Assembly: GCA_018333815.1 (NCBI GenBank)
Contig: JAGXSN010000180.1
Coordinates: forward strand, 1 to 43,104
DNA length: 43,104 nucleotides
Direction of reading: 5' to 3'
Source: Sulfuritalea sp.
GTDB taxonomy: Bacteria; Pseudomonadota; Gammaproteobacteria; Burkholderiales; Rhodocyclaceae
Shown piece by piece: positions 286 to 38,127 of the stretch. Each line of letters starts with the position of its first letter. Positions within the stretch are counted from its first letter, which is position 1. The position numbers were made by a program, and so were the translations under genes. The notes beneath the pieces were generated by a model. The model had not been told where the DNA came from. It saw only the letters and a list, made by a program, of their open reading frames with translations, and did not search any database.

Positions 286-3099
286 CTAGCTTAATTTATT
301 CAATTGGTTAGCGATATTCTCGCGCAACGTGTTGAAGCTCGCCAGCCGCTCGCGCTCCTGCGCCACGACGGCGGCGGGCGCGCGGGCGACGAAGCTCTCG
401 GTGGCGAGCTTTTTTTCCGCCTTGGCGATCTCGCCCTCGACGCGGGCAAGCTCCTTGCCGAGGCGCTCCTTCTCGGCGGCGACGTCGATCTCGATCTTGA
501 GCATCAGGCGGTAATTGCCTACGATCTGCACCGGGGCATCCGAATCGGGCAGGGTGTCGGCAACCGCAACTTCCGAGAGCTTGCCGAGCGCGGCGAGGTA
601 GGGAGCGTAGTCTTCGAGGGCCGCGTCGCCGGCGCCGACCAGCGGAACTTTCTGTGCCGGCGAAATGTTCATCTCGCCGCGCAGACTGCGGCAGGCAGTG
701 ACCAGAGACTTGAGAGTGGCAACCCATTGCTCCGCCTTCTCGTCGCAGCGGGCCGGGTCGGCGACCGGGTAGGGCTGCAACATCACCGTGGGCGCCGTCT
801 CGCCAGCGCCGACTTTTCCTGCGACAGGCGCGACGGTCTGCCAGAGCTCCTCGGTGATGAAGGGAATCAGCGGGTGGGCGAGCCGCAGCACGGTTTCCAG
901 CACGCGGACCAGGGTGCGACGCGTGGCCCGCTGCTGGGCTGCGGCGCCTGCCTGCATCTGCACCTTGGCAAGCTCGACATACCAATCGCAATATTCGTCC
1001 CAGACGAATTCGTAGATGGCCTTGGCGAGCAGGTCGAAGCGGTAGTCGGCGAAATGCTTTGCCACTTCTGTTTCCAGGCGCTGCAACAGGCTGACAATCC
1101 ACTGGTCGGCGGGCAAGAACTCAAGCGGCAGGCTGGCGTCGAGGCCGACGTCCTGGCCTTCGCAGTTCATCAGCACGAAGCGCGAGGCGTTCCACAGTTT
1201 GTTGCAGAAGTTGCGATAACCCTCGCAGCGCTGCATGTCGAACTTGATATCGCGGCCGGGGCTGGCGAGCGACAGGAAGGTGAAGCGCAGAGCGTCGGCG
1301 CCGAAGCCCGGGATGCCGTTCGGGTACTCCTTGCGGGTGCGTTTTTCGATCTGCGCCGCCTGCTTCGGGTTCATCAGGCCGGTGGTGCGTTTGGCGACAA
1401 GGTCGTTTAGGCTGATGCCGTCGATCAGGTCGATCGGATCGAGCACGTTGCCCTTCGACTTCGACATCTTCTGGCCTTCGGCGTCGCGGATCAGGCCGTG
1501 CACATAGACGTGCCTGAACGGAATTTTCCCCGTGATGTGTTTCGTCATCATCACCATGCGCGCCACCCAGAAGAAGATGATGTCGAAGCCGGTGACCAGC
1601 ACCGTCGAAGGGAGATAGAGATCGAGGGCCGGGTTCGACCTGGCCGGCCACTCGGGCGTCCAGTCGAGCGTCGAGAAGGGCCAGAGCGCGGAGGAGTACC
1701 AGGTGTCGAGCACGTCCGGGTCGCGTTCCAGCCCGCCGGTATAGCCCTCCTGCTTCGCCAGGGCATAGGCCTCGGCCTCGTCGTGGGCAACCCAGACGCG
1801 ACCGTCGTCGCCATGCCAGGCCGGAATCTGGTGGCCCCACCAGAGCTGGCGGGAGATGCACCAGTCCTGGATGTTGCCCAGCCACTGGTTGTAGGTATTG
1901 ACCCAGTTCTCGGGCACGAACTTGATCTCGCCCGAACTCACGCATTCAAGGGCCTTGCCCGCAATGCTCTTGCCATCGGCGCCGGGCTTGGACATGGCGA
2001 CGAACCACTGGTCGGTGAGCATCGGTTCGACGACGACGCCTGTGCGGTCGCCGCGCGGCACCATCAGCTTGTGCGGCTTGGTGGCGACCAGCAGGCCTGC
2101 GGCTTCGAGGTCGGCGACGATCGCCTTGCGGGCATCGTAGCGGTCCATGCCCCGATATTTCTCGGGACCGTGCTCGTTGATGCGCGCGTCGAGGGTGAAG
2201 ATCGAGATCGGCGTCAGGCCGTGCCGGTGGCCGACCTGCCAGTCGTTGAAGTCGTGGGCCGGCGTGATCTTGACGCAGCCGGTGCCGAATTCCTTGTCGA
2301 CCCAGACGTCGGCGATGACCGGGATCGTACGTCCGGTGAGCGGCAGCTGGACAGGCTTGCCGATCAGGTGTTTGTAGCGATCATCCTCGGGATTCACGGC
2401 GACCGCGACGTCGCCGAGCAGGGTCTCCGGCCGCGTGGTGGCGACGGTGAGCGAGCCATTGCCCATGTTGGCAGATTCGGCGAACGGGTAGCTGATCTCC
2501 CACATGAAGCCGTCTTCCTCCTCGCTGACGACTTCGAGGTCGGAGACGGCGGTGAGCAGCTTCGGATCCCAGTTGACCAGGCGCTTGCCGCGATAGATCA
2601 GCCCTTCCTGGCGGAGACGGACGAAGGTCTCGGTGACGATCTTCGACAGACCGGCATCCATGGTGAAGCGCTCGCGCGTCCAGTCGGGCGAGGTGCCGAG
2701 GCGGCGCATCTGGCGCGTGATGGTGTTGCCGGAAAACTCCTTCCACTCCCAGACTTTTTCGAGGAACTTCTCGCGGCCGAGGTCGTGACGCGAGATGCCT
2801 TGTGCATCGAGTTGGCGTTCGACGACGATCTGCGTGGCGATGCCGGCATGGTCGGTGCCCGGCTGCCACAGCGTGTTGGCGCCGCGCATGCGGTGGTAGC
2901 GCGTCAGCGCATCCATGATCGCCTGGTTGAAGCCGTGGCCCATGTGCAGCGTGCCGGTGACGTTCGGCGGCGGCAGCAGGATGCAGAAGTTGTCGGTCTT
3001 GTCACGGTCGAGACCGGCGGCGAAATAGCCGTTCGACTCCCAGACGGGATACCAGCGCCGCTCGATCTCTGCGGGCTCGAAGCTTTTGGCGAGTTCCAT
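286..3099 (-). CDS. valS: Valine--tRNA ligase
   Basis: [13 protein letters not shown] (HIGH-type), [18 protein letters not shown]-terminal coiled coil. Confidence 0.99.
794..815 (-). repeat. 22-bp dispersed motif, copy 1 (inside valS)
   Basis: Minus strand AAGTCGGCGCTGGCGAGACGGC; encodes KVGAGETA. Confidence 0.85.
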
Positions 3100-3138
3100 G
3101 ACGATCAGGGGTTGCGGCGCGCCGACGGAGGCGGGCGA

Positions 3139-3537
3139 TTATAGCGAGGGGGGCTGTCCATCGATCCGCTCCGCCTCGCCGCGCTGCGCATCGATCAGCG
3201 CGGCGAGGCGCGGCAGGAGGTTGTGGCGCGCCTTGCCGTCGAGTTCGTCGAGGAGCTGCTGGCTGGCGGTGGAGACGGCTGCGGGCAGGGCTTGCGCAAG
3301 CCAGGCGGAAACCTCACCGTCAATTTCGTCGCGCAGCGACGCGAGCAGATTAGCGACGTCCCGGCGGTCGAGGGCTTGCGCGTCGACGATGTCGGTGAGC
3401 AGGGGGACGTCGTCCTCCGCGCCGGCATCCGCAGGCTCGGGGAGGGGCGGCGGCGGTTCGGCCGGCCGGGCGACGAAGCTGCGAAAACGCCTCTGGAACG
3501 TCTCGGAATGGACGATCTCTTCTGCGCCGTCCGTCAT
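3139..3537 (-). CDS. Conserved hypothetical protein (DUF2486-like) between holC and valS
   Basis: ATG overlaps the holC TGA (ATGA). Pro/acidic linker, DVPLLTDIV motif, helical C-terminus. Confidence 0.7.
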   Translation of the reverse strand: MTDGAEEIVHSETFQRRFRSFVARPAEPPPPLPEPADAGAEDDVPLLTDIVDAQALDRRDVANLLASLRDEIDGEVSAWLAQALPAAVSTASQQLLDELDGKARHNLLPRLAALIDAQRGEAERIDGQPPSL

Positions 3538-3962
3538 TCCATTCCTCCGCAAATGTCGCGGTTGTCGATCGCATAGCCGCGATCGCGGTAGAACTTGAAG
3601 CGCTCGCGCGCCGGCAGGCGGTCGGAGTCGTCGGTGCTGACGACCTCGACCACGTGCTCGAAACGCGAGAAGGCCGGCGGCAGATCGTTGCTCAGGTTGA
3701 GCAGGCAGCGCTCGTGCGGCGGACTGTCCAGCCGGTCGGTCAGCAGGATCGGCGTTTCTCCCGCCCAGGGCGAGTCCGCCCGACAGTGCGGCAGGAATGA
3801 CAGGGCCGGCTGGGTCCACAGCATGCGATCGAGCCGGGCGGCCTGCTCGGCATCCGGGACATACACCAGCACCGCCTGCCTTTCGGCCCAGGCCTGTCGC
3901 AGCCATTGGGCAGCGGACTGGAGCCGTTCCGGCGCGCCGTGCAGGAAGGAGATGCGCGTCAT
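3534..3962 (-). CDS. holC: DNA polymerase III subunit chi
   Basis: LDRMLW..SFLPH and ARERFKFYRDRGY; pepA-holC-valS synteny. Confidence 0.96.
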   Translation of the reverse strand: MTRISFLHGAPERLQSAAQWLRQAWAERQAVLVYVPDAEQAARLDRMLWTQPALSFLPHCRADSPWAGETPILLTDRLDSPPHERCLLNLSNDLPPAFSRFEHVVEVVSTDDSDRLPARERFKFYRDRGYAIDNRDICGGME

Positions 3963-3965
3963 GGC

Positions 3966-5492
3966 CTACTGCGATGCCGTCCCGCCGGCGCCGACTTTCG
4001 CTGCGCGCTCAATCAGAAAATGGGTCAGCAGCGGCACCGGGCGGCCGGTGGAACCCTTCTCCTTGCCCGACTTGTAGGCGGTGCCGGCGATGTCGAGATG
4101 CGCCCACTCGTACTTCTTGGCGAAGCGCGACAGGAAGCAGGCGGCCGTGATCGTGCCGGCGGGGCGTCCGCCGATGTTGCCCAGGTCGGCGAAGTTGCTC
4201 TGCAATTGTTCCTGGTAGTCCTCGAACAGGGGCAACTGCCAGGCGCGATCCCAGCTCGCGTTGCCGGCATCGAGCAGTTCGCGCGCCAGCCCATCGTCGT
4301 TGGCGAGCAGGCCGCTGACGACATGGCCGAGCGCGATCACGCAGGCGCCGGTCAGCGTGGCGACATCGATGACGCAGTCGGGCTCGAAGCGCTCGACATA
4401 GGTCAGCGCATCGCAGAGGATCAGCCGGCCTTCGGCATCGGTGTTGAGAATTTCGACGGTCTGGCCGGACATCGAGGTGACGATGTCGCCGGGACGCGTC
4501 GCGCTGCCGCCGGGCATGTTCTCGACCGCCGGCACGACGGCGATGATGTTGAGCGGCAGTTTCATCAGGGCGGCGGCCTTGATGGCGGCCAGCACGCTGG
4601 CGGCGCCGGACATGTCGAACTTCATTTCGTCCATCTCGGGCGGGGGCTTGAGGGAGATGCCGCCCGTGTCGAAGGTGACGCCCTTGCCGACGAGGACGAT
4701 CGGCTTGTCGTTGCCCTTGCCGGACTTGCCGCCCTGATATTTCAGGACGATGAACTGCGGCGGCTGGTGCGAACCCCTGGCGACGGCCAGCAGGGTGTTC
4801 ATGCCCAGCTGCTCCATTTCTTCACGACCGAGGATTTCGGCCGCGAGGCCATGTTCGGCGGCCAGCGCGCGGGCCTGTTCGGCCAGATAGGTCGGGGTGC
4901 AGAGGTTGCCCGGCAGGTTGGCCAGGTTTTTCATCAAACTCATGCCGGCGGCGATGGCCTGACCCTCCCGCAGGGCCTGCTCGGCGGCGGCCAGCTCGCC
5001 GCGTCGCTCGACGCAGAAGGTCAGCTTACGCAGGGGGCGGCGCACCTCGTCCTTCTTCGATTTGAGCCGATCGAAGCGGTAGAGCGTCTCCTCAACCGCG
5101 ATGATGGCCTGGCGCACGCGCCAGGCGATGTCGCGTTTTTTCACCGGCAGTTCAGTCAGGTAGATCGTGCCGTCGAAGCCGCCGGTTTCGTTGAGTGTGC
5201 GTACGGTCGCGGCGATGGCCGCACGATACTCCTTTTCGCGGAACTCGCGCTCCTTGCCCAGGCCGACCAGCAGGATGCGGTCCGCCTCGGCGCCGGGCAC
5301 CTTGTGCAGCAACAGGGTGTTGCCCGCCTTGCCTTCCATGTCGCCGCGCCGCAGCAGTTCGGAGAGATGGCCGCGCGCCGCGTTGTCCAGCAGTTCCGCA
5401 GGCAGGGAGAGTTTGCGCGATTCGAACACGCCGACGACCACGCAGGCCGTGCGCTGCTTTTCCGGGCTGCCGCTCTTTATGCTAAATTCCAC
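3966..5492 (-). CDS. pepA: Leucyl aminopeptidase (M17)
   Basis: GKGVTFDTGG, MKFDMSG, NTDAEGRL, HLDIAG. GTG start at 5492 with CAGGAG RBS. Confidence 0.98.
   Translation of the reverse strand: MEFSIKSGSPEKQRTACVVVGVFESRKLSLPAELLDNAARGHLSELLRRGDMEGKAGNTLLLHKVPGAEADRILLVGLGKEREFREKEYRAAIAATVRTLNETGGFDGTIYLTELPVKKRDIAWRVRQAIIAVEETLYRFDRLKSKKDEVRRPLRKLTFCVERRGELAAAEQALREGQAIAAGMSLMKNLANLPGNLCTPTYLAEQARALAAEHGLAAEILGREEMEQLGMNTLLAVARGSHQPPQFIVLKYQGGKSGKGNDKPIVLVGKGVTFDTGGISLKPPPEMDEMKFDMSGAASVLAAIKAAALMKLPLNIIAVVPAVENMPGGSATRPGDIVTSMSGQTVEILNTDAEGRLILCDALTYVERFEPDCVIDVATLTGACVIALGHVVSGLLANDDGLARELLDAGNASWDRAWQLPLFEDYQEQLQSNFADLGNIGGRPAGTITAACFLSRFAKKYEWAHLDIAGTAYKSGKEKGSTGRPVPLLTHFLIERAAKVGAGGTASQ
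3976..3997 (-). repeat. 22-bp dispersed motif, copy 2 (pepA C-terminal tail)
   Basis: Minus strand AAGTCGGCGCCGGCGGGACGGC; encodes KVGAGGTA. Confidence 0.85.
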
Positions 5493-5597
5493 CGCCGACT
5501 CCTGGAAGATGAACGAAACGCGCAGTTTACGCATTTTTTCGGCCCGATCCCCGTCCGGACCGAAATTCCGCAAACTTCTCCATGCCAGCCTCGACCG

Positions 5598-6692
5598 ATG
5601 ATCTTCCGGCGTTCCGCCCAGCGTGAGTTCGCGCAGACCGCAATCGCGGTGTTTGTCGCTCTTTTCGCTATCATGCTGACGCTACAACTGGTGCGCCTGC
5701 TGGGCCGGGCTGCGGCGGGGCAGGTCGCCTCGGAAGCGGTCGCGGCCATGCTCGGCTTCGCCGCATTGAACTATCTCCCGATTTTGTTGGCCCTGACGCT
5801 GTTTGTTGCCGTTTTGCTGTCGCTGTCGCGGGTTTACCGGGATTCCGAGATGACGATCTGGTTCTCGGCGGGCGTGCCGCTCACCGCCTGGATCGCACCG
5901 GTGCTGCGCTTCGCCTTTCCCGTCGTCCTGGCCATCGCCGTCCTGGCCCTGTTCCTGTCGCCCTGGGCGCAGGGCAAGCGCGCCGAATACCAGCAGCGCC
6001 TGGATCAGCGCGACGACGTGGCGCGCGTCACGCCGGGCGCCTTCAAGGAGTCCGCGCGCGGCGACCGCGTGTTTTTCGTCGAGTCGATCCCGGCTGGCGC
6101 GGGACAGAACCAGGTCGGCAACATCTTCGTCAGCTCGATGCAGCACGGCCGGCTGGGCGTGGTCACCGCCGCCCGGGGCCGCACCGAGGTCGCGGAAAAC
6201 GGCGACCGGTTCCTCGTCCTGAGCCAGGGCCGGCGCTACGAGGGCGTCGCCGGTGCGGCCGAATACCGGGTGATGGAGTTCGCCAGCTACGCGATGCGCA
6301 TCGAGACGGCCGAAAACGATGGCCCGGCAAGAACAGCCAAGAGCCTCGCGCTCTGGGAACTGCTGCGGGAGCGCACGCCGATCAACCAGGGCGAACTGCT
6401 GTGGCGCATCGGCGTCCCGCTGTCCGCCCTGTTGCTCGCCCTGCTGGCGATTCCGCTGTCCTTCGTCAATCCGCGCGCCGGCCGCACCAACAACCTGATC
6501 TTCGCGCTGCTGACTTTCATGATTTACAGCAACCTGCTCTCGGTCAGCCAGGCCTGGGTGGCGCAGGGGCGCATCTCTTTCGCCGTGGGCGTCTGGGCGG
6601 TCCACCTGCCGATGTTGCTGGTCCTGCTGTTGCTGTTCTGGCAGCGCATCAGGGTGTTTTCGCCCTGGCGCTTCGCCCGTCGGGGCCCCTAG
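5598..6692 (+). CDS. lptF: LPS export ABC transporter permease LptF
   Basis: MIFRRS.. start, LSRVYRDSEM, six TM segments, divergent from pepA. Confidence 0.95.
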   Translation: MIFRRSAQREFAQTAIAVFVALFAIMLTLQLVRLLGRAAAGQVASEAVAAMLGFAALNYLPILLALTLFVAVLLSLSRVYRDSEMTIWFSAGVPLTAWIAPVLRFAFPVVLAIAVLALFLSPWAQGKRAEYQQRLDQRDDVARVTPGAFKESARGDRVFFVESIPAGAGQNQVGNIFVSSMQHGRLGVVTAARGRTEVAENGDRFLVLSQGRRYEGVAGAAEYRVMEFASYAMRIETAENDGPARTAKSLALWELLRERTPINQGELLWRIGVPLSALLLALLAIPLSFVNPRAGRTNNLIFALLTFMIYSNLLSVSQAWVAQGRISFAVGVWAVHLPMLLVLLLLFWQRIRVFSPWRFARRGP

Positions 6693-6693
6693 G

Positions 6694-7767: not shown

Positions 7768-8257
7768 GGCGCGTGCCGGCGAGACGGTCGTGCAGGAACT
7801 GGCGATCGCGGTCGACCAGGGCCCAGAGAATCCCCAGGCCCAGGCCGATGCTCGGCCAGGCGAGGACATAGCGCCAGGCCAGGAGGATCAGCGCCGGCGG
7901 ACGTCCCAGCCGGTCAACCAGATGCAGATGCCAGGTGCGCATCGGCAGGGTCTGGCGGCCGTCCTGCCAGTGCCAGAGGAAGTAGATCGCCAGCGCCAGG
8001 AAGACGAGCGCCCGAATGGTCGCGACCGGCGCCGGCCGCTGCGACAGGGCGCTGAATGCGGTGAGCAGCAGGACGAGCACACCCACGATGCCGGCGACGA
8101 GCAGGCCTTCGTAGAACATGCTGGCAAGGCGGCGGCCGATGCTGGCCGGGGCGCCGAGGGCTGTCGGACTCCCAAGAAGTTCGCCGGGCCGCCCCAAGAG
8201 TCTCTTGCCCCTTGAGGGGAGAACCGAGCGAAGCGAAGGTTTTCGGGGTGGGCTCAC
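7715..8257 (-). CDS. RDD family membrane protein (first ~28 aa derived from a repeat element)
   Basis: RRLASMFYE, GRQTLPMRTW, DRQFLHDRLAGT. GTG start overlaps the upstream TGA. Confidence 0.88.
   Translation of the reverse strand: MSPPRKPSLRSVLPSRGKRLLGRPGELLGSPTALGAPASIGRRLASMFYEGLLVAGIVGVLVLLLTAFSALSQRPAPVATIRALVFLALAIYFLWHWQDGRQTLPMRTWHLHLVDRLGRPPALILLAWRYVLAWPSIGLGLGILWALVDRDRQFLHDRLAGTRLIYAPPAKASPPPPAGK
8173..8257 (-). repeat. ~85-bp multi-hairpin junction element, copy A
   Basis: GTGAGCCCACCCCGAAAACC..TCTCCCCTCAAGGGGCA..GGGGCGGCCC; homologous to 24855-24934 and 30860-30909. Confidence 0.85.
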
Positions 8258-8895: not shown

Positions 8896-9254
8896 GCCTG
8901 AAACCCTTTGTCGAGATACGCATTGGGCGGCAGGACGTCGGCCAGCAGGGCGCTGTCGATCGCCTCGTTCTCGCTCGCCCGGCTGAAGCCGTTCCAGTAG
9001 TAGGACAGGCCCACGCCGAACAGCAGAACGAGGATGGCCAGGGTCGTGCGCAGCGGGTGTTTTTTCTCGTCGCCGCCCAGCAGCGCCGTCCCGCCGGCGC
9101 CGATCTGGACAGCGCCGGGGACGAGAACCGGCTGGCGCTGCAAGGCGCGCTCGCGCGCGGCGCGCAGGCGTTCGGCGACGCCGCGCTCGAGTTGCGCCGC
9201 GCCCCGATCGAGTACGCGGCAGATCTGTCGGGCAAATTGTTCTTCGCGGCTCAT
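8862..9254 (-). CDS. DUF3619-like single-TM protein (putative anti-sigma factor)
   Basis: ERLRAARERAL, TM helix, IDSALLADVLPPNAYLDKGF; ATGA overlap with the sigma gene. Confidence 0.85.
   Translation of the reverse strand: MSREEQFARQICRVLDRGAAQLERGVAERLRAARERALQRQPVLVPGAVQIGAGGTALLGGDEKKHPLRTTLAILVLLFGVGLSYYWNGFSRASENEAIDSALLADVLPPNAYLDKGFQAWLEKDSSAGQ
9085..9106 (-). repeat. 22-bp dispersed motif, copy 3 (inside DUF3619-like gene)
   Basis: Minus strand AGATCGGCGCCGGCGGGACGGC; encodes QIGAGGTA. Confidence 0.75.
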
Positions 9255-13166: not shown

Positions 13167-13808
13167 GTGAACTACCCGCACCCTATCGTCGCCCGGGAAG
13201 GCTGGCCCTTCCTGGGTGGCGCCATTGTCCTGGCCCTGCTGGCGACCTTCGGCGGCGGTCCGCTCTGGTCGATACCTTTCTGGCTGGTCGTCTTGTTCAT
13301 CTTGCAGTTCTTCCGCGATCCGGCGCGCGCCGTGGCGGGAGGCGCGAAGAGCATCCTGTCGCCCGCCGACGGCCGCATCGTCGTCATCGAGCCTGCCCGC
13401 GACCCCTGGCTCGACCGGGAAACCCTCAAGATCAGCGTGTTCATGAACGTGTTCAACGTGCACTCGAACCGCAGCCCGGTCGATGGCGATGTCATGAGGC
13501 GCTGGTATCGCCCCGGCAAGTTCGTCAACGCCAGTCTCGACAAGGCCTCGACCGAAAACGAGCGCAACGCCCTGCACATCCGCACCGCCGACGGCCAGGA
13601 TGTCACCTGCGTGCAGGTGGCGGGCCTGATCGCGCGGCGCATCCTCTGCTACGTCGGGACGGGGGCCCGACTCCAACGCGGCCAGCGCTACGGCTTCATC
13701 CGCTTCGGTTCGCGCGTCGACCTCTATCTGCCCAAGGAGGTGGCCGTCAAGGTCGGTGTTGGCCAGAAGGTGCATGCCACCTCGACGATTCTCGCTGAAC
13801 TCCCGTAA
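13167..13808 (+). CDS. psd: Phosphatidylserine decarboxylase proenzyme
   Basis: FFRDP, SPADG, FNVH, and the FGSRVD self-cleavage motif. Confidence 0.95.
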
Positions 13809-16733: not shown

Positions 16734-16740
16734 GCGCCGC

Positions 16741-16762
16741 AAGTCGGCGCCGGCAGGACGGC
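16741..16762 (+). repeat. 22-bp dispersed motif, copy 4 (intergenic)
   Basis: AAGTCGGCGCCGGCAGGACGGC. Confidence 0.85.
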
Positions 16763-24827: not shown

Positions 24828-24829
24828 CA

Positions 24830-24851
24830 ATGTCGGCGCCGGCGGGACGGC
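24830..24851 (+). repeat. 22-bp dispersed motif, copy 5 (just after the algR-like stop)
   Basis: ATGTCGGCGCCGGCGGGACGGC. Confidence 0.85.
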
Positions 24852-24854
24852 GGA

Positions 24855-24934
24855 ATGAGGCCACCCCGCAATCGCCGCTGCGCGGCGATCTCCCCTCAAG
24901 GGGCAGAAACACTCGGGGCGGCCCTTCGTGTTTC
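24855..24934 (+). repeat. ~80-bp multi-hairpin junction element, copy B
   Basis: ATGAGGCCACCCCG..ATCGCCGC-TGC-GCGGCGAT..CCCCTCAAGGGG..GAAACAC..GGGGCGGCCC..GTGTTTC. Confidence 0.85.
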
Positions 24935-25056: not shown

Positions 25057-26739
25057 ATGCGTATCCATTCCGTGCTCGCCGGTGCGTTGCTCGCCGCCGG
25101 TCTGCTGACGGTCGGCGCGGCTCAGGCGCGCGGCGGCGATGTCGGCAACGTGATCTTTCTGCATCCCGACGGTACCGGGCTCAACCACTGGACCGCTGCG
25201 CGCATCTACTGGAAAGGCCCCGACGGGTCGCTCAACTGGGATCGTCTGCCCCAGATGGCGGCTTACCGCGGCCACATGCTCGAAACGCTCACCGGCACCT
25301 CGAACGGCGGTGCGACGGTGCATGCCTTCGGTTACAAGGTCGAAGGGCTGGGCTCTTTCGGCAAAGACGGCAACGGCAACGCCATTCCGCCGACCGACCG
25401 TTTCATCAACGCCTTGTCCGGCTATCCGGGCAGCATTTTGCGCGAGGCGGCCAACCAGGGATATCCCACCGGATTGGTCAATGACGGCAATGTCGGAGAA
25501 CCGGGTACGGGTGCGTTTGCCGCGGAAGTGGGCAATCGCGACAACTGGAACGCGATCGCGCTGCAGATCATTGCCGGTCGCGACGGCGCGCTGCCGGCGA
25601 AGAATTCGACCGACAAGGCGCCGGTCGTCATTCTCGGCGGCGGCGAACGCAACTTCCTGCCGACGGGCACGCCGGCCTGTGCGCCGCAAAGCGCCGGCGC
25701 GGCGCTTCAGCAGGGCGTCGCTACCTACCCGCTCGACTGCATGGTGCATACGCTCGACTGGAGCAAGCCCGGCGGTACTGCCGGCCCGCTCGGCATCGGT
25801 CGCGTGGCCACGCCAGACCGCACCGACGGCCGCAACCTGCTGGCCGAAGCCGCCGACGCCGGCTATCTCGTGATCCGCACGCGCGCCGAATTCGAGACGG
25901 CGGTCAAGCGCCTCGAGAGCGATCGTCGCTGGCAACCCAAGATCCTCGGTTTGTTCGCCGCGCACCACACGTTTAACGACCGCAACGAGGAAGAGCTGAG
26001 CGCCAGCGGCTTCCGTGACGCGAGCATCGAGGTCAATGACAAAAGCTCGAATCTGGTGTTGTTCGGCAATCCCGCCGGCGCCGATCCTGGTTTTAATCCG
26101 CCGCGCGGCGACGAAATGATGTCGCTGGCCATGATCGTTCTTGCGCGCGCCGGCGAGGCCGTCCGCAAGCCTTACTTCCTGGTGGCCGAACCCGAGAGCA
26201 ACGACAATTTCGGCAACAACAACAATGCGATCGGTATGCTGCTGGCCATGAAGGTGGCCGACGACATGCTCGGGGTGGCTCTGGGGGCGCAGAACGATCG
26301 GCGCGCCGGCCGCCACGGTTCGCGTTTCCCCATCACCGTCTTGACGGCTGCCGACAGCGACGCCAGCGGCATGCAACTGGTCGCGCGACCGGCTGGCAAC
26401 GCAGGTACCGTGAACCTCAATCCCGCCGCCGGGCAGTCGGCTGCGAACAATCCGGTTGACGGTTTGTATGGGCGCGGCACCCAGTTGTTCGCGGCCGCGC
26501 CGGATCAGTTCGGCAACGTGCATCACTTCGGCATTGCCTGGGCCGGCACGCCGGATTTCGCCGGCGGCATCCTGGCGCGCGCCAGCGAGGAACGTTTCAA
26601 GAATCGCGACCACCGCGGCAAGGTGACGCTGGCCGACTTCAGCGAGCGTTTCGACAACACCGACGTGTACCGCTACATGTACGACAAGCTGTTCGGCATC
26701 CTGCTGCCGGCGCCGACCGGCGGGGCGCCGAGCCGCTGA
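25057..26739 (+). CDS. Secreted alkaline phosphatase family protein (atypical metal ligands)
   Basis: AAGGAG RBS, signal peptide, NVIFLHPDG, TSNGGAT, VILGGG, LGLFA, TAAD, DNTDVY. Confidence 0.85.
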   Translation: MRIHSVLAGALLAAGLLTVGAAQARGGDVGNVIFLHPDGTGLNHWTAARIYWKGPDGSLNWDRLPQMAAYRGHMLETLTGTSNGGATVHAFGYKVEGLGSFGKDGNGNAIPPTDRFINALSGYPGSILREAANQGYPTGLVNDGNVGEPGTGAFAAEVGNRDNWNAIALQIIAGRDGALPAKNSTDKAPVVILGGGERNFLPTGTPACAPQSAGAALQQGVATYPLDCMVHTLDWSKPGGTAGPLGIGRVATPDRTDGRNLLAEAADAGYLVIRTRAEFETAVKRLESDRRWQPKILGLFAAHHTFNDRNEEELSASGFRDASIEVNDKSSNLVLFGNPAGADPGFNPPRGDEMMSLAMIVLARAGEAVRKPYFLVAEPESNDNFGNNNNAIGMLLAMKVADDMLGVALGAQNDRRAGRHGSRFPITVLTAADSDASGMQLVARPAGNAGTVNLNPAAGQSAANNPVDGLYGRGTQLFAAAPDQFGNVHHFGIAWAGTPDFAGGILARASEERFKNRDHRGKVTLADFSERFDNTDVYRYMYDKLFGILLPAPTGGAPSR

Positions 26740-29034: not shown

Positions 29035-29036
29035 GG

Positions 29037-30859: not shown

Positions 30860-30909
30860 CCCTCGAGGGATCTACAGGTCTCCCAGCGCGGTTTTCGGGG
30901 TGGGCTCAT
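30860..30909 (-). repeat. Degenerate junction element, copy C
   Basis: ATGAGCCCACCCCGAAAACC (19 nt identical to copy A) followed by CCCTCGAGGG; begins at the hemP stop (TGATG). Confidence 0.7.
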
Positions 30910-31106
30910 CACTTGGTGAGGATCAGCCTGTTCTGGCGGGTCAAACGCAGACGGTAGACATCCGGGCCATGCCGGATCACGACTTCGTTCCCCCCCGAAA
31001 AGAGGACGTCCGAATTGAGAGAGGGCGCGGCGGATTGCCGCGACAGCCGGCCTGCTGGCTTTTGGTCTGGGGTCTTCGGCGCATCGGGGGCAGGAGGGGA
31101 GCGCAT
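30909..31106 (-). CDS. hemP: Hemin uptake protein HemP family
   Basis: S..LF.G.NEVVIRHG..VYRLRLTRQNRLILTK signature. Confidence 0.9.
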   Translation of the reverse strand: MRSPPAPDAPKTPDQKPAGRLSRQSAAPSLNSDVLFSGGNEVVIRHGPDVYRLRLTRQNRLILTK

Positions 31107-31124
31107 GGCCAACGAGCTTTCATT

Positions 31125-31162
31125 TGCGAATGAATCCCATCTTACATGAGAATAATTCTTAT
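31125..31162. promoter_or_regulatory. Fur boxes upstream of hemP
   Basis: ATGAGAATAATTCTTAT (31146-31162) and a weaker TGCGAATGAATCCCA (31125-31139) in an AT-rich patch. Confidence 0.75.
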
Positions 31163-31264
31163 ATGCAAGTTATATTGCCCTGCGGGGCGCTCGGAGGCGT
31201 TCGGCGCTACTCCGGAAAAGGCAACAGGCTAGAATCGCCGCCTTGATCCATTGGGTTGCCCGCC

Positions 31265-33352
31265 ATGTCCGCGCGTCAGATCCTCGTCACTTCCGCCCTG
31301 CCGTACGCCAATGGCGCGATCCACCTGGGCCATCTCGTCGAATACATCCAGACCGACATCTGGGTACGCTTCCAGAAGATGCGCGGCCACGAATGCTGGT
31401 ACGTCTGCGCCGACGACACCCACGGCACGCCCATCATGCTGCGCGCCGAGAAGGAAGGCATCACGCCGGAACAGCTGATCGCCCGCGTGCATGGCGAGCA
31501 CCTGAGCGACTTCAAGGGATTCCTGGTCGCCTTCGACAATTACTACTCCACCCATAGCGACGAGACGCGCGGCTACTCCGAGGACATCTACCGCAAGCTG
31601 CAGGCCACCGGGCTGATCGAGGTGCGCGCCGTCGAGCAGTTTTATGACCCGGTCAAGCAGATGTTCCTGCCGGATCGTTTCATCAAGGGCGAGTGCCCGA
31701 AATGCGGCGCCAAGGACCAGTACGGCGACAGTTGCGAGGCCTGCGGCGCGGCCTACGCGCCCACGGAACTCAAAAATCCTTATTCGGCCGTCTCGGGCGC
31801 CACGCCCGAACTGAAGCATTCCGATCATTATTTTTTCAAGCTGTCCGATCCGCGCTGCCAGCGCTTCCTGCGCGCCTGGACGCGCCGCGGCCACCTCCAG
31901 CCCGAGGCGGCCAACAAGCTGGCGGAATGGCTGGGGGGGGAAGGCGAGAGCCGGCTGACCGACTGGGACATCTCGCGCGACGCGCCCTATTTCGGCTTCG
32001 AGATTCCCGGCGCGCCGGGGAAATACTTCTACGTCTGGCTCGATGCGCCGATCGGCTACATGGGCTCGTTCAAGAACCTCTGCACGAAGCGGGGCCTGAA
32101 TTTCGACGACTGGTGGAAGCCCGACTCCAAGGCCGAGCTCTACCACTTCATCGGCAAGGACATCCTCTATTTCCATGCCCTGTTCTGGCCCGCGGAATTG
32201 CAGCACGCCGGCTACCGCACGCCGACCAACGTCTTCGCCCACGGCTTCCTCACCGTGGATGGCGCCAAGATGAGCAAATCGCGCGGTACCTTCATCACCG
32301 CCGCGAGCTACCTCGAGCAGGGACTCAATCCTGAGTGGCTGCGTTACTACTTCGCCGCCAAGCTCAATGGCACGATGGAGGACATCGACCTCAACCTCGA
32401 CGACTTCGTCAGCCGCGTCAACAGCGACCTGGTCGGCAAGTACATCAACATCGCCAGCCGCGCCGCCGGTTTCATCGCAAACCGGTTCGCCGGCAAACTG
32501 CTCGACGAATCCTGCCACGACCGCTTCATGGCCAGCCTGCCCGAGCTGCTGCTGGCAGCCGAAGAAATCGCCGACGGCTATGAGCAGCGCGATTATGGCC
32601 GCGCGATCCGCCGCATCATGGCGTTCGCCGACCTGGTCAACCAGTATGTCGATCACCACCAGCCGTGGAAACTCGCCAAGCAGGGCGGCCAGGAACGGGA
32701 ACTGCATGCGGTCTGCACGGTGTTGATCAACGCGTTCCGCCTTCTGACGCTCTACCTCAAGCCGGTTTGCCCGCAGCTCGCCCGGCGCGCCGAGGAATTC
32801 CTCAACCTTGCTCCGCTCCATTGGCGCGATGCCGCGCATCTCCTGCCGCCGGGACATGCGATCAATCCCTACGAGCACCTGATGTCCCGCATCGAACCGA
32901 AACAGATCGAGGCGCTGCTGGCGGCCAACCGCGAGTCCCTCGCGCCGGCGCCCGCGGAACACTCGCCGCAACGCCATGCCCAGCACCAGAGCGGGGAAGG
33001 GAAGCGGGCGGTCGAGCAGATCGGCAGCGACGATTTCGCCAAGGTCGACCTGCGCATTGCCCGCATCGCCGCGGCCGCCCATGTCGAGGGCGCCGAGAAG
33101 CTCCTCAGGCTGACCCTCGATCTCGGCCCGCTGGGAACGCGGCAGGTGTTTGCCGGCATCAAGGCCGCCTACGATCCGGCCGCGCTGGTCGGTCGTCTCA
33201 CCGTGATGGTCGCCAATCTGGCGCCGCGCAAGATGAAGTTCGGCGTCAGCGATGGCATGGTGCTGGCCGCCTCCGACCCCGAGGGCAAGACCGGCGGCCT
33301 CTACCTCCTTTCTCCCGATTCCGGCGCCACGCCGGGCATGCAAGTCAAGTGA
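31265..33352 (+). CDS. metG: Methionine--tRNA ligase
   Basis: PYANG.IHLGH, zinc knuckle CPKC..CEAC, KMSKS, C-terminal tRNA-binding domain. Confidence 0.99.
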
Positions 33353-33624
33353 CCGAGATCCGCCGTCTGATCATCACCGGCCGGGTGCAGGGCGTGGCCT
33401 ACCGTGCCAGCATGATGCGGGAGGCGCTGCGCCTCGGCGTCGCCGGCTGGGTGAGGAACCGCAGCGACGGCAGCGTCGAGGCGATGGTGGCGGGCGCCCC
33501 GGAACAGGTCGCCGCGATCATGAACTGGGCGCGGCGCGGGCCGCCGGCGGCAGCGGTGGAGCATGTCGCCGTCGAACTGGGCAGCGGGGAATACAGCGGC
33601 TTCGAACAGCGCGCTTCCGTCTGA
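33349..33624 (+). CDS. acyP: Acylphosphatase
   Basis: [24 protein letters not shown]; GTGA overlap with metG. Confidence 0.93.
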
Positions 33625-33646
33625 AAGTCGGCGCTGGCACGACGGC
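33625..33646 (+). repeat. 22-bp dispersed motif, copy 6 (fills the acyP-dnaE convergent gap)
   Basis: AAGTCGGCGCTGGCACGACGGC occupies 22 of the 24 intergenic bases. Confidence 0.85.
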
Positions 33647-33648
33647 GG

Positions 33649-36600
33649 TCAGCCGTAGAGCACGCGCACGTTGTCCGGCGTGAGCCAGTCGGTCAGATCG
33701 GCGATGAGGCGGTCGTCGAGCCGCACGCGCCAGCAGTCGGGCAGCGCGAGTTCGGCTTCGGCATCCGCGTTGCGGTAGCGGAGGCGCACCGGGCAGGCGC
33801 CTGCCGTCGCGCGATAGGGCGACAGCAGGGTGCGCAGGCGTTCGGCCGTGGCGCCGTCGCTCCTGCCGGCGAGCGAAACCTCGAGCCGGCGCGCGCAGCG
33901 GCCGCGCGCCTCGGCCAGCGTGAGCAGGTTGTTGGCGACAACGCGCAGGCCGCCGCTGAAATCGTCGCGACTGACCTTGCCTTCGACCACCAGCACTTCG
34001 TCCGGGCGGATCTTGTTGCGCAGCTCGTCCCACAGCTCGCTATACACCGTGACTTCGACTTGCGCCGTGGCGTCGTCGAGCGTGACGATCGCCATCTTGC
34101 CGTGCCGCGACATCTGGCTGCGGATGGCGAGGACCAGGCCGCACAGCAGGGCCGGCTCGCGCTGGGGTTCGAGTTCGGCCAGGCGCCGTCGGACGAACGC
34201 CGAGATTTCCGCGGCGCAGGCGTTGAACGGGTGACCCGAGAGATAGAACCCCAGCGCTTGCTTCTCGTTGAGCAGGCGCTCGCGCTCGCTCCAGCGCGGC
34301 GCCTCGACGTAGTGCGCCAGGTGGGCATGGGGTTGCGCCGTCGGGTCGGGCGAATCGAACAGCCCGCCTTGGTGCGCGTTGCGTTCGGCCTGTTCGGCGG
34401 CCTCGAGCGCGCGGCCCGCCGAGGCGAGCAGCCGGGCGCGATGCGTGTCGATGCCGTCGAAGGCGCCGGCGCGGATCAGCGCCTCGATGACGCGGCGGTT
34501 GACGACGCGCCGGTCGATGCGCCGGCAGAAGTCGAACAGGTCGACGAAGGGACCAGCCTCGCGCGCCTTCAGGATCGCCGTGAGCGCCGATTCGCCGGTG
34601 CCCTTGATCGCGCCGAGGCCGTAGCGGACGGTGCGGGCGTCGACGGGGGTGAAGCGCACCAGGCCGGCATTGATGTCCGGCGGCAGGAAGACGATGCCGT
34701 TGTCCAGGGCATCCTTGAAGAAGAACTGCACCTTGTCGGTGTCGGCCATTTCCGAGGACAGCGTGGCTGCCATGAAGGCGGCCGGATGATGGCATTTGAG
34801 CCAGGCAGTCTGATAGGCGACCAGAGAATAGGCGGCGGCGTGCGACTTGTTGAAGCCGTAGCCGGCGAACTTTTCCATCGTGTCGAAGATCTCGTTCGCC
34901 TTGGCTGCGCCGATGCCGTTCTGCGCCGCGCCCCGAAGGAAGGCCTCGCGCTGCTGGGCCATCTCTTCGATTTTCTTCTTGCCCATCGCGCGGCGCAACA
35001 GGTCGGCGCCGCCCAGCGTGTAGTGGGCGACCAGCTGGGCCGCCTGCATCACCTGCTCCTGATACACCATGATGCCGTAGGTGGGACTGAGCGTCTTCTC
35101 GAGGAGCGGATGCGGGTAGACGACGCGCTCGCGCCCGTGCTTGCGGGCGATGAAGCTCGGAATGAAATCCATCGGCCCGGGCCGGTAGAGCGCATTCAGG
35201 GCGATCAGGTCTTCCAGGCAGTCGGGGCGCGCCTGCAGCAGCGTGTCCTTCATGCCGCGCGACTCGAACTGGAACACCGCCGTGGTGTTGGCGGTCTTGA
35301 AGATCGTGTCATAGGTGGCCTTGTCGTCGAGCGGCAGATTTTCGAGCCGGATCTCGACGCCTTCGACCTGCTGCACGAAGGCGACGGCTTCCGCCAGGAT
35401 GGTCAGCGTGCGCAGGCCGAGGAAGTCGAACTTCACCAGGCCGGCCTGCTCGACGTCGTCCTTGTCGAACTGGCTCACCGTTGCACCGCCGTCCGCCGAG
35501 TAGAGCGGGCAGAAGTCGGTGAGCTTGCCCGGCGCGATCAGCACGCCGCCGGCGTGCATGCCGACGTTGCGCGTCAGCCCTTCGAGTTTTTCGGCGAGCG
35601 CCCAGAGCTCGCGCAGTTCCTCTTCCTGCTGCAGGCGCTCGTCGATCTGCGGCTCCTTTTCCCTGGCATCTTTCAGCGTGATTCCCAATTCGTTGGGAAT
35701 CAGCTTGGCGAACTGGTCGACGAAGTTGAAGCCGAGGTCGAGCACGCGGCCGACGTCGCGGATCACCGCCTTGGCCGCCATCGTGCCGAAGGTGGCGATC
35801 TGCGCCACGGCGTGCTGGCCGTAGCGCTGGCGCACGTAGTCGATGACCCGGTCGCGGCCTTCCTGGCAGAAGTCGATGTCGAAGTCGGGCATCGAGACGC
35901 GCTCGGGATTGAGGAAGCGCTCGAACAGCAGTTCGTAGCGCAGCGGATCGAGGTCGGTGATGCCGAGGCTCCAGGCGACCAGCGAGCCGGCGCCCGAGCC
36001 GCGGCCCGGGCCGACGGGCACGCCGTTGTGCTTGCCCCAGTTGATGAAGTCGGCGACGATCAGGAAGTAGCCGGGGAAGCCCATCTGGATGATGGTTCGG
36101 ATCTCGAATTCGAGCCGGGTGCCGTACTGCGGGCGCCGACTTTCGCGCTCGGCCGGATCGGGGTAGAGATGTTCGAGGCGTTTCTCCAGGCCGGCACGCG
36201 CCTGCTGGTCGAGATAGGCCTCGATCGTCTCGCCGTTGGGCGTCGGGAATTCCGGCAGGAAGCTCTTGCCGAGCGGGACGGACAGGTTGCAGCGCTGGGC
36301 GATCGCCACGCTGTTCGACAGCGCCTCGGGCAGGTCGGCGAACAGCGCGGCCATTTCGTCCTGCGTCTTGAAGTATTGCGCCGTGCTGAAGCTCTTCGGG
36401 CGGCGCTTGTCGCCCATCACGTAGCCTTCGGCGATGCAGACGCGCGCCTCGTGGGCGCGGAAGTCGTCGGGATCGAGGAACTGCACCGGATGGGTCGCCA
36501 CCACCGGCAGGTCGAGTTCGGCGCCCAGTCGCAGCGTCGCGGCGATCAGGCGCTCCTGCGCCGGATTCTCCTGCGTGCCGTCCGGGCGCTGGATCTCGAG

Positions 36601-37119
36601 ATAGAAGCCGTCGGGAAACAGCCCGGCCCACTGGCGCGCGCTGGCGGTCGCCTGGTCGACCTTGTCGGCGACCAGCCACTGGCCGACTTCGCCGAAGTGC
36701 GCGCCCGACAACGCGATCAGCCCGCTGTTGTCGCCGCAAAAGACGCTGCGCGGGATTTCGGCGCGGCCGTGGCGGCGCGGCCGCAGATAGGCCGCGGTGA
36801 GCAGCTCGCACAGCCGCAGGTAACCGGCGCGGTTCTTCGCCAGCAGCAGCAGGCGCGTGGCGACTGCGCGCGAGGGATCGGGGCTTGCACCGTCCGCCGC
36901 GGCGATCCAGACATCGCAACCGATGATCGGCTTGAGGCCCGCGCCGCGCGCCGCGCTGTAGAACTTGACCGTGCCGAACAGGTTGGCCAGGTCGGTCAGC
37001 GCCAGGGCCGGCATGCCGTCCGCCGTCGCGCGCTTCACCGCATCGTCGAGCCGCGTCAGCCCGTCGGTGATCGAGTATTCGCTGTGGAGGCGGAGGTGGA
37101 CGAAGCGGGGGGCGGGCAT
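33649..37119 (-). CDS. dnaE: DNA polymerase III subunit alpha
   Basis: HLRLHSEYS (PHP domain), GRGSGAGS, MPDFDIDF, KFDFLGL, GFNKSH; no intein evident. Confidence 0.99.
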   Translation of the reverse strand: MPAPRFVHLRLHSEYSITDGLTRLDDAVKRATADGMPALALTDLANLFGTVKFYSAARGAGLKPIIGCDVWIAAADGASPDPSRAVATRLLLLAKNRAGYLRLCELLTAAYLRPRRHGRAEIPRSVFCGDNSGLIALSGAHFGEVGQWLVADKVDQATASARQWAGLFPDGFYLEIQRPDGTQENPAQERLIAATLRLGAELDLPVVATHPVQFLDPDDFRAHEARVCIAEGYVMGDKRRPKSFSTAQYFKTQDEMAALFADLPEALSNSVAIAQRCNLSVPLGKSFLPEFPTPNGETIEAYLDQQARAGLEKRLEHLYPDPAERESRRPQYGTRLEFEIRTIIQMGFPGYFLIVADFINWGKHNGVPVGPGRGSGAGSLVAWSLGITDLDPLRYELLFERFLNPERVSMPDFDIDFCQEGRDRVIDYVRQRYGQHAVAQIATFGTMAAKAVIRDVGRVLDLGFNFVDQFAKLIPNELGITLKDAREKEPQIDERLQQEEELRELWALAEKLEGLTRNVGMHAGGVLIAPGKLTDFCPLYSADGGATVSQFDKDDVEQAGLVKFDFLGLRTLTILAEAVAFVQQVEGVEIRLENLPLDDKATYDTIFKTANTTAVFQFESRGMKDTLLQARPDCLEDLIALNALYRPGPMDFIPSFIARKHGRERVVYPHPLLEKTLSPTYGIMVYQEQVMQAAQLVAHYTLGGADLLRRAMGKKKIEEMAQQREAFLRGAAQNGIGAAKANEIFDTMEKFAGYGFNKSHAAAYSLVAYQTAWLKCHHPAAFMAATLSSEMADTDKVQFFFKDALDNGIVFLPPDINAGLVRFTPVDARTVRYGLGAIKGTGESALTAILKAREAGPFVDLFDFCRRIDRRVVNRRVIEALIRAGAFDGIDTHRARLLASAGRALEAAEQAERNAHQGGLFDSPDPTAQPHAHLAHYVEAPRWSERERLLNEKQALGFYLSGHPFNACAAEISAFVRRRLAELEPQREPALLCGLVLAIRSQMSRHGKMAIVTLDDATAQVEVTVYSELWDELRNKIRPDEVLVVEGKVSRDDFSGGLRVVANNLLTLAEARGRCARRLEVSLAGRSDGATAERLRTLLSPYRATAGACPVRLRYRNADAEAELALPDCWRVRLDDRLIADLTDWLTPDNVRVLYG

Positions 37120-37130
37120 CGCCCCGGATT

Positions 37131-38081
37131 CTACTGTTTTGCCCAGATCAGCAAGCCTTGCGCATCCAGATCCAGGTCGGTCTCCCAGAGGCGGAAAATT
37201 TCGGCCTCGGCCAGCGTGCTGCCATGGCCGCGCGCTTCGGCCAGGAGATAGGCCGCGAGCTTTTCCTTGAGCAGGGGCAGGGGGTCGCCGGGCGCGGCCT
37301 CCTGCACGGCTTCTCGGGTCAGGCGCACGCATTCGTCGATGCGGTGCAACAGCTCGGCGGCGAGCGACCGCGGCGGGGCGAGGCGGCCGAAATGGGTCAG
37401 ATAAACGGCTTCCGGATCGAGCGCGATCATGCGCTCGACCGAGTCGCGCCAGTCCGCCGGATCGAATTGCGAGGGCGTCGGGCAGGGAAAGACGAAATGC
37501 CGGCCGTCGGCCGCGTCCATCTCGCGGTAGCCGATGCCGAAAGTGTCGCCGGTAAAAATCCCGTTCGCGGCGCGATCATGGATGAAGACATGGTGCTTGG
37601 CGTGTCCGGGGCAGTCGTAGCAGGCGAGCGCGCGCTGGCCGAGCGGCAGCACCATGCCGTCGTGCGTTTCGATGACGCGCTCGGGCGGCACGGGAATCAG
37701 CGTGCCGTAGAGGCGCCGCGCATTTTCCTGGCCATAGACTTCCTCGGTCGCGGCCATCAGCTTGGTCGGGTCGACCATGTGGCGCGCGCCGCGCGGGTGG
37801 ACCACGAACTGCGCCTGCGGGAAGGCCTGCATGTAGGCGCCGGAGCCGCCGGCATGGTCCAGATGGATGTGCGTGGCGATGACGTAGGCGACGTTTGCGG
37901 CCGTCAGTCCGAGCTCCGCGAGCGCCCGCTGGGCGCGCGGCAGGCTTGCGTTGCTGCCGTTGTCGATGAAGGCGGCGCGACCGGCGTCCACCACGAGGTG
38001 CACTGCGGCGAGCTGGTGACGCACGTAGCCGGCGTCGAAGGCGTAAATGCCGTTGCGGTAGTCGATGAGGGAAAATTCCAT
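37131..38081 (-). CDS. MBL-fold metallo-hydrolase
   Basis: THIHLDHAGG, PGHAKHH, FTGD, THFG. Confidence 0.92.
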   Translation of the reverse strand: MEFSLIDYRNGIYAFDAGYVRHQLAAVHLVVDAGRAAFIDNGSNASLPRAQRALAELGLTAANVAYVIATHIHLDHAGGSGAYMQAFPQAQFVVHPRGARHMVDPTKLMAATEEVYGQENARRLYGTLIPVPPERVIETHDGMVLPLGQRALACYDCPGHAKHHVFIHDRAANGIFTGDTFGIGYREMDAADGRHFVFPCPTPSQFDPADWRDSVERMIALDPEAVYLTHFGRLAPPRSLAAELLHRIDECVRLTREAVQEAAPGDPLPLLKEKLAAYLLAEARGHGSTLAEAEIFRLWETDLDLDAQGLLIWAKQ

Positions 38082-38105
38082 GGCGGGCGAGAGTTGGTGG
38101 GGGAG

Positions 38106-38127
38106 AAGTCGGCGCTGGCGGGACGGC
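38106..38127 (+). repeat. 22-bp dispersed motif, copy 7 (intergenic)
   Basis: AAGTCGGCGCTGGCGGGACGGC. Confidence 0.85.

Follow-up and report, generated by a model that had tools for sequence, protein, structure and literature searches.

Sequence-specific DNA uptake has been described for two host-associated families only (PMC2817400, bioRxiv 10.1101/2025.10.24.684340), namely Neisseriaceae, which use the DNA uptake sequence (DUS), and Pasteurellaceae, which use the uptake signal sequence (USS). The cores of both signals occur at a density of 0.8-0.9 per kb (PMC2817400), both often form terminator pairs (PMC2817400, bioRxiv 10.1101/2025.10.24.684340), and all DUS dialects have in common a CTG core at positions 6-8 (PMC3630211). 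Here, we have analyzed a stretch of 43,104 nucleotides from Sulfuritalea sp. (Rhodocyclaceae; GenBank assembly GCA_018333815.1, contig JAGXSN010000180.1), hereafter the window, in which an original prediction had noticed seven dispersed copies of a non-palindromic 22-bp motif and had proposed a possibly undescribed uptake-sequence dialect or a chromosome-organizing site. The window is one contig (C180) of the genome G000 (2,340,181 bp in 269 contigs, 84% complete, 66% GC). The motif is a real DNA word, found genome-wide and clade-wide. No published description of it was found among the matches listed in searches for "DNA uptake sequence" with Rhodocyclaceae, for Sulfuritalea with uptake and repeat terms, and for the literal sequence and peptide, a search whose scope excluded most subscription journals.

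A 23-bp word in the genome and the clade

The search pattern TCGGCGCYGGCRVGACGGC returned seven copies in the window, all at the predicted coordinates and strands, and none in 100 dinucleotide shuffles; when up to three mismatches were allowed, an eighth copy appeared in dnaE, where 0.03 were expected. An iterated weight matrix with a threshold of 16 bits gave the genome-wide consensus AAAGTCGGCGCYGGCRRGACGGC, which keeps the core of the predicted unit and extends it by an A at the 5' end to 23 bp, with a weakly preferred purine on either side, beyond which information drops to about zero. The matrix is strongest in two blocks, AAAGTCGG and GACGGC, which are separated by a looser middle, with TCGG and ACGGC nearly invariant. 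The word is non-palindromic, and its matches are split into 177 forward and 164 reverse. G000 contains 460 sites compared with 4 in a fifth-order Markov genome of equal size, and 223 exact matches compared with 1, so that the word is not confined to the window and recurs at intervals of about 5 kb. Over the 23 positions, information totals approximately 31 bits (a value somewhat inflated by the 16-bit threshold), while approximately 13 bits would suffice to distinguish 460 sites; lowering the threshold to 8 bits raises the number to just 518, indicating that there is no large tail of weak sites. The matrix is alike in 302 coding and 129 non-coding copies, departures from the consensus are nearly independent except at neighboring positions and one pair, and no flanking duplication was found around the sites of G000. 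Chance and amino-acid constraint, the latter already dismissed by the original prediction, were ruled out by the dinucleotide shuffles, the Markov genome and ten synonymous-codon shuffles, which left 56-77 sites at 16 bits, where 303 were observed, and 0-7 at 30 bits, where 203 were observed.

The placement of the word was examined with genes called by our own hexamer model (2329 genes), which agreed with profile matches inside the window. Genes hold 302 of the 460 sites versus 400 expected at random, whereas 69 lie in tandem gaps (22 expected), 27 in convergent gaps (4 expected) and 16 in divergent gaps (8 expected); a further 29 overlap a gene end (17 expected) and 17 are at contig ends. In tandem gaps, the word is enriched just 3' of stop codons, with 40 of the 69 sites at most 19 bp from the stop. 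Genic sites occur in both orientations (168 sense, 134 antisense) and are unequally divided among the six frames, with 121 read as KVGAGGTA (frame 0), 76 as AVPPAPTF, 53 as RRLASADF and 37, 10 and 5 in the others. Rare codons abound at frame-0 sites (AAA 93% vs 19%, GCT 47% vs 3%, GGG 97% vs 12%). The closest opposite-strand neighbors among 249 neighbor pairs are 345 bp apart, and the word therefore forms no terminator pairs. A role as an RNA or terminator signal was rejected on the basis of both orientations in genes, 30 sense versus 39 antisense sites in tandem gaps, and the lack of pairs and of a hairpin.

Word density also depends on codon use, being 0.95 per 10 kb in the most atypical decile of genes, 2.3-2.8 in the middle range and 1.4 in the most biased genes. 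Seven large motif-free contigs of G000 were inspected and carry an integrative and conjugative element (ICE), a restriction-modification island, a siderophore cluster of the nonribosomal peptide synthetase-polyketide synthase (NRPS-PKS) type, and polysaccharide or TonB/chelatase genes. The NRPS-PKS cluster (contigs C106 and C6), with an Irp3-like reductase and salicylate-type enzymes, resembles a yersiniabactin-like siderophore island. The motif-richest contigs are C82 with mutS (5 copies over 5.1 kb), C10 with mutL (4 over 6.1 kb) and C238 with the major pilin and toxin-antitoxin genes (5 over 5.9 kb), the gene names being our own reading of the sequence. The second commonest long word of G000 is a CRISPR array (C210 and C227) of 89 repeats of approximately 37 bp with unique spacers, unrelated to the motif.

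Beyond G000, the strict pattern matched in 35 of 36 congeners, and among 24 genomes of other families only one had matches (2 copies). The named records among the first 80 of 140 matching loci belong mostly to Sulfuritalea, Sulfurisoma, Rugosibacter, Sterolibacteriaceae and Rhodocyclaceae. Eight word-rich genera were detected among 400 genomes of the family; a degenerate pattern applied to 80 genomes added four more, giving 12 of the 83 sampled, and the remaining genomes had 0-23 matches. Several lineages have genome-wide dialects of their own, such as AAASTC...GGGCGGC in G036 (424 near-matches), ...GACGGT in G008 (551 near-matches), TCAG...ACGCC in G140, TCGACGCT in G112 and TCAGCCGTGGCGRYACGCC in G199. 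The congener G011 and the close outside genome G090 lack the word, with no site in 142 kb and a single one in 931 kb, respectively. A hidden dialect in these two was rejected, as de novo searches of 142 kb and 220 kb were empty, whereas the word ranked first among dyads in 160 kb of G000. G011 is the most diverged congener in ValS (80%), MutL and PrmC, and still has ComEC and the minor pilin. A single ValS tree left the order of the genera unresolved. A few perfect copies are clustered on single contigs of motif-poor genomes (contig C29 of G050; also G129, G132, G128 and G089), which could be DNA transferred from the motif-rich group or binning errors.

The word is also carried by approximately 170 viral contigs. 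Of 126 viral loci, the 49 longer contigs tested contain 101 matches in 1.46 Mb, which amounts to 37 per Mb once the selecting match of each is removed, versus 146 per Mb in G000. One provirus contig (L171:301-1655) has five copies spaced by approximately 316 bp in near-identical tandem units, and each copy is followed by a sequence (CCTAAC ... GTTAGGC) that resembles an integron attC site, which suggests that these units are repeated cassettes carrying the word.

Turnover of sites and hairpin inserts

How sites arise was examined against the word-free genomes G090 and G011, in which 63 coding sites have an orthologue, 59 of them inside the aligned span. The motif version is gap-free at 29 sites, longer by 1-5 residues at 14, by 7-9 at 4 and by at least 10 at 2, and shorter at 10; a minority of sites (6 of 59) may be insertions. 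Local protein identity at the sites is 32% compared with 72% in control windows of the same genes, 93% of which are gap-free. Where no gap exists (29 sites), the outgroup DNA already shares 12.1 of 23 bases with the word, compared with 7.6 at random (p=1e-14). Clear examples of overwriting within the window are the gene at 13167-13808, where KVAIGDKV has become KVGVGETV in relatives, and a second valS site, whose motif version has the rare TTA codon. The original prediction had asked whether the KVGAG(G/E)TA peptide of ValS and PepA is lineage-specific; 14 of 31 aligned ValS genes carry a copy in the same variable loop, and some ValS loops are longer by 7-8 residues. Of the prmC genes of congeners (26 of 30 loci were readable), nearly all carry the word at one place, each in its own spelling, even where the residue changes.

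Conservation was assessed by aligning 130 kb with the close congener G031, at 84% identity. Four-fold degenerate sites inside the word differ at 8 of 71 positions versus 5098 of 19571 (26%) elsewhere (p=0.004), in a comparison that favors conservation because the sites were picked in G000. Among 24 sites, the score is maintained at 13 and inserts in G000 interrupt 3 more; in G031 the others are degenerate or contain gaps, several of them through many changes. Together with the outgroup comparison, this indicates that sites are both conserved and turned over, mainly by overwriting. The word overwrites tolerant coding positions and distorts protein sequences, with KVGAGGTA or AVPPAPTF appearing in unrelated enzymes.

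An all-against-all comparison of flanks linked 46 of the 460 sites to another site, and the main groups are three families of hairpin-rich inserts. In total, 19 sites carry inserts of 27-84 nt between AAAGT and CGG: family A (72 nt) at 6 sites, two of them in mutL; family B (81 or 84 nt) at 11 sites, three of them in tandem; and family C (27 and 69 nt) at 2 sites. The last two bases of every insert are GT or a variant, and all insert lengths are multiples of three. The left half of the word is as expected in 9 of the 11 family-B sites, whereas one reads AAAGC and one runs off the contig. Bare words occur in G031 at both mutL sites and in prmC, indicating that the word preceded the inserts. The original prediction, which had set the motif apart from REPs and MITEs for want of a hairpin or flanking duplication, stands for the approximately 440 bare sites but not for these 19, whose inserts arrived after the bare word.

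Other genomes have inserts as well. Different hairpin inserts, all in frame, lie in or just after the same prmC site in three congeners (L492, L490 and L491, from G022, G007 and G034). Family A was found in 11 of 251 genomes of the family, G199 alone having 46 copies, of which 10 were inspected and 9 sit in the dialect of G199 at the same bond; all 6 copies of G000 likewise sit in the local dialect. Among 84 family-A matches in genomes and metagenomes, 44 lack both motif flanks and lie for the most part where other repeats have a T^C junction; family B is also found at gene starts. The word is thus a strongly preferred, but not the sole, target of the inserts. Family-B relatives off the motif are located by gene starts on eight contigs of G000 (C240, C219, C105, C8, C4, C182, C142 and C29), and the inner arm of this family is complementary to the local flank (GCCTCC/GGAGGC at gene starts, GTCGGC/GCCGAC at the motif). 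Short signature scans of G000, a weak test in an 84% complete genome, gave no HUH, reverse transcriptase (RT), IS110, GIY-YIG or RAYT candidate for a mobilizing enzyme.

DNA uptake and other explanations

The word shares with uptake sequences a hundreds-fold over-representation without palindromy and alike on both strands, an under-representation in genes with frame bias and poorly conserved positions, a scarcity in recently acquired DNA, and an origin mainly by mutation and recombination rather than insertion. Concerted change of a dialect over hundreds of loci without copying would require a trans-acting reader. Drive, that is, biased transfer plus recombination, appears to fit better than selection at each site, considering the excess information, the loss without replacement and the scarcity in foreign DNA. 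On this basis, the word is a lineage-specific signal that is likely read by a sequence-specific receptor in DNA uptake, which would make it a third, independent signal of the uptake type; we consider this reading to have about an even chance of being right, because DNA uptake is the only documented case of such drive. A protein would read the word on double-stranded DNA, as its two strong blocks around a looser middle suggest, during uptake by way of the type IV pilus, ComEC and DprA. Cells would favor word-bearing DNA in uptake and recombination, and molecular drive would carry better matches through the core genome, as has been inferred for the uptake sequences of Neisseriaceae and Pasteurellaceae. 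Each dialect would be driven by a change of the receptor, for which a minor pilin is the precedent, and the hairpin inserts would be parasites exploiting an abundant, protein-handled site.

ComEC was found in 60 of 60 relatives (the profile misses it in G000, as the gene begins at C256:4527 and is cut off by the contig end at 4690), and G000 has DprA, the major pilin and a minor-pilin operon with a match to the Pfam family ComP_DUS (PF16732). This match occurs whether or not a genome has the word (68 of 70 genomes) and is an ordinary PilE-like pilin. ComEA or a homologue is required for uptake in Neisseria, Haemophilus and Vibrio, although not in every competent species. ComEA exceeded the cut-off in 13 of 70 genomes; the ComEA-profile match in G000 was rejected as the HhH domain of a 770-aa protein, Tex by our reading. 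No gene peculiar to motif-rich genomes was seen among the matches listed for the ComEC neighborhoods of 30 genomes, and a scan for small basic secreted proteins gave no convincing receptor. Of the competence genes suggested earlier for inspection, ComEC was found in all relatives examined, the ComP-like match occurs regardless of the motif, and ComEA was not found in most motif-rich genomes.

Several observations weigh against DNA uptake. Inverted terminator pairs, frequent in DUS and USS, are absent, and the density of approximately 0.2 per kb is a quarter of that of DUS and USS cores. ComEC and the ComP_DUS match are equally present in motif-poor genomes and therefore do not discriminate. 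The main result against DNA uptake concerns ComEA, which was detected in 11 of 31 motif-poor genomes but in only 2 of the 37 motif-rich ones (2 of 39 if two genomes outside the pattern count are included) and in 0 of 19 of the genus itself; a second ComEA profile applied to five long assemblies gave only HhH frames in large proteins of Tex length. The literature searched contained no report of natural competence in this group. One of four long chromosomes has a leading-strand bias, and another has the word thinner near the origin (p=0.005). In addition, three insert families at one bond are more simply explained by a cut made inside the cell.

Alternatively, an intracellular enzyme for nicking, recombination or repair may act on the word, whose role would be like that of HIP1 or Chi; cutting at AAAGT^CGG would bias gene conversion toward better matches and admit hairpin elements. 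We regard this as unlikely, though as the main rival, on account of the single-bond inserts and the missing ComEA. The 19 sites opened at one bond by three unrelated families, the family-A copies lying in the local dialect in both G000 (6 of 6) and G199 (9 of 10 inspected), and the precise insertion of SDR5 in HIP1, which has been tied to directed cutting (PMC4390886), all favor it, whereas the family-A matches at T^C junctions without the word (44 of 84) imply that the element itself may make the cut, strand polarity of the Chi kind was not consistently observed, and the weak signature scans gave no HUH, RT, IS110 or GIY-YIG candidate. With its 23 asymmetric bases, the word is also longer than would be expected of a methylase or Chi site, which counts against such an enzyme. 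A start signal of some other biased transfer, whether pac-like (gene transfer agent or transducing phage) or oriT-like (chromosomal relaxase), would produce the same drive and would account for the excess information, the scarcity in foreign DNA and the lack of ComEA; the word is indeed carried by phage contigs, at the reduced density given above, but the ICE contigs of G000, one of them with a TraI relaxase, have no copy, and we hold such a signal to be improbable. As for a very small mobile repeat of the REP, SDR or RPE type that inserts 24 bases in frame, motif segments are longer than motif-free orthologues at 20 of 59 sites and shorter at 10, some ValS loops exceed others by 7-8 residues, and the reverse strand has the CGTC tetramer of CGTC-tagged REPs (PMC3733652). 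On the other hand, 29 of the 59 sites are gap-free and one is exactly 8 residues longer, the outgroups were already similar, positions are nearly independent, neither hairpin nor target duplication exists, copies are single with 66% in genes, and CGTC is changed in dialects, so that this explanation is already largely refuted and very improbable.

A binding site for a nucleoid, SMC-loading or division protein, kept by selection, was the other half of the original prediction. Conservation in place, the two-block matrix and a near-random to slightly even spacing in three of four long chromosomes (coefficient of variation of gaps 0.78-1.05) agree with it. The position of the word relative to replication was followed on these four chromosomes, with the terminus taken as opposite dnaA. 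It occurs in every ori-to-ter fifth on all four, with leading-strand shares of 54/76 (p=0.0003), 30/70, 81/145 (145 of 147 sites listed) and 26/42, and no ori/ter or strand pattern recurs across them. The chromosome with the bias (G243) is the only one of its kind; its fetched region has the lowest GC (57%) among those scanned, and its genus is the sole motif-rich one with ComEA. An apparent strand bias in G002 vanished once the reverse query was added. The lack of ori/ter confinement, the non-palindromic sequence, information more than twice the need of a binding site, the loss without replacement in G011 and G090 and the presence in phages make a chromosome-organizing site quite improbable. 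The genome-wide, lineage-specific word acting at the DNA level proposed originally has held up, while the analogy with matS, SlmA and Noc sites is weak.

In a bolder and more tentative reading, which we think possible but doubtful, the word would be the entry or cutting site of a novel, ComEA-independent machine with which environmental Rhodocyclaceae recognize self-DNA. Such a signal of 23 bp would have rewritten hundreds of proteins, its dialect would track its reader, and it would be one that is opened at AAAGT^CGG and serves as a landing pad for several unrelated hairpin elements.

If DNA uptake is the correct reading, a third, independent and much longer signal in free-living bacteria of water and wastewater would test whether such signals originate by drive or by selection, with congeners of different dialects and one congener without the word as natural pairs. 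It would also provide a handle for transforming a group for which, to our knowledge, few genetic tools exist. Moreover, proteins distorted by the word can mislead homology searches and phylogeny, and the targeting of a single bond by hairpin elements points to an enzyme step that is directly mappable.

Copies in the window and comparison with known systems

Three copies in the window lie in genes in the same frame (frame 0), as predicted: in a length-variable loop of valS (794..816, minus strand, KVGAGETA, 40.2 bits), in the C-terminal tail of pepA (3976..3998, minus strand, KVGAGGTA, 38.4 bits) and in a DUF3619 gene (9085..9107, minus strand, QIGAGGTA, 26.9 bits), where 6 of 12 orthologues have one at the same position. 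The eighth copy, in dnaE (36121..36143, minus strand, 29.0 bits), is in frame 1 (ESRRPQYG). The remaining four had been described as intergenic next to gene ends, which is correct for three of them: the copy just past the stop of a LytTR response regulator (24829..24851, plus strand, 32.4 bits), that between acyP and dnaE (33624..33646, plus strand, 35.8 bits), which overlaps the acyP stop by one base and, as noted originally, nearly fills the gap (22 of 24 bp), and that between two metallo-hydrolase (SoxH-like) genes (38105..38127, plus strand, 36.5 bits). The fourth (16740..16762, plus strand, 32.5 bits) lies between the starts of divergent DUF2069 and glutaredoxin genes, not past stops. Directly 3' of the LytTR copy is a small hairpin-rich repeat (24853..24934, plus strand) with relatives near motif sites on contigs C138 and C261. 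Folding of four window copies was no better than that of shuffles (z -0.46 to -1.05).

Degenerate sites are present at 620..642 in valS (minus strand, 10.8 bits), at 13749..13771 in the gene 13167-13808 (plus strand, 11.3 bits), where two congeners have a full gap-free copy, and at 34185..34207 in dnaE (minus strand, 13.8 bits). Of three weaker matches proposed originally, the valS site corresponds to full copies in orthologues, with at least 16 bits reached at the same position in 11 of 30 relatives, most of them gap-free; that at 26066-26088 is borderline (9.2 bits), and that at 7958-7974 is no match (below 0 bits). The end of the window (37131-43103) carries soxB, X, A and Z together with two SoxH-like hydrolases, a sulfur-oxidation (Sox) cluster of the kind usual in this group.

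Among short chromosome-wide protein sites located in and between genes, matS, SlmA-binding, Noc-binding and parS sites are palindromic and confined to regions, whereas KOPS and Chi are short and polarised. The word likewise spans genes and gaps; it has neither the palindrome and confinement of the former nor the replication polarity of the latter. Like the cyanobacterial HIP1 with SDR5, it is an abundant genome-wide word that was lost in some lineages and is precisely targeted by a small repeat; unlike HIP1, an 8-bp palindrome tied to methyltransferases, it is asymmetric and has 23 bp (PMC4390886). CGTC- and GTAG-tagged REPs, REPINs and MITEs are similar to the inserts, which are 27-84 nt long, have several hairpins and lie in frame in genes such as mutL; REPs also occur within repair genes (PMC3733652). 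The word itself, in contrast, has no stem-loop, is neither mainly extragenic nor paired or clustered, and mostly overwrites rather than inserts.

In most genomic respects the word resembles DUS and USS, with the same pattern of properties as the uptake sequences in PMC2817400 and PMC2397512, and it belongs to neither family. The USS of Pasteurellaceae consists of a 9-bp core in a 29-bp consensus, with ComN/PpdA as predicted receptor. Like it, the word is long, asymmetric, present in both orientations and approximately two thirds genic with frame bias, is scarce in recently acquired genes and has lineage subtypes (PMC2817400, PMC3458573, PMC12616744). Unlike it, the word has neither the AAGTGCGGT nor the ACAAGCGGT core with T-rich tracts (cores as given in PMC2817400), is unrelated in sequence save for the opening AAAGT, has a GC-rich second block in place of T-tracts, forms no terminator pairs, reaches about a quarter of the density, and occurs in genomes in which ComEA was mostly not found. 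With the DUS of Neisseriaceae, whose receptor is ComP, the word shares lineage dialects, permissive places in the core genome, conservation of the word itself (PMC3630211, PMC2397512) and new copies that often differ at several bases from the orthologous site (PMC2397512, PMC3630211). It differs in having 23 rather than 10-12 bp, no CTG core at the DUS register and no inverted pairs, and the named carriers are Rhodocyclaceae-type records, not Neisseriaceae. A Neisseria DUS dialect was ruled out, as the reverse strand reads GCCGTCYCGC without the CTG core that PMC3630211 gives for all DUS dialects; the GCCGTC opening seen by the original prediction is real in this genome but is altered in other dialects of the word.

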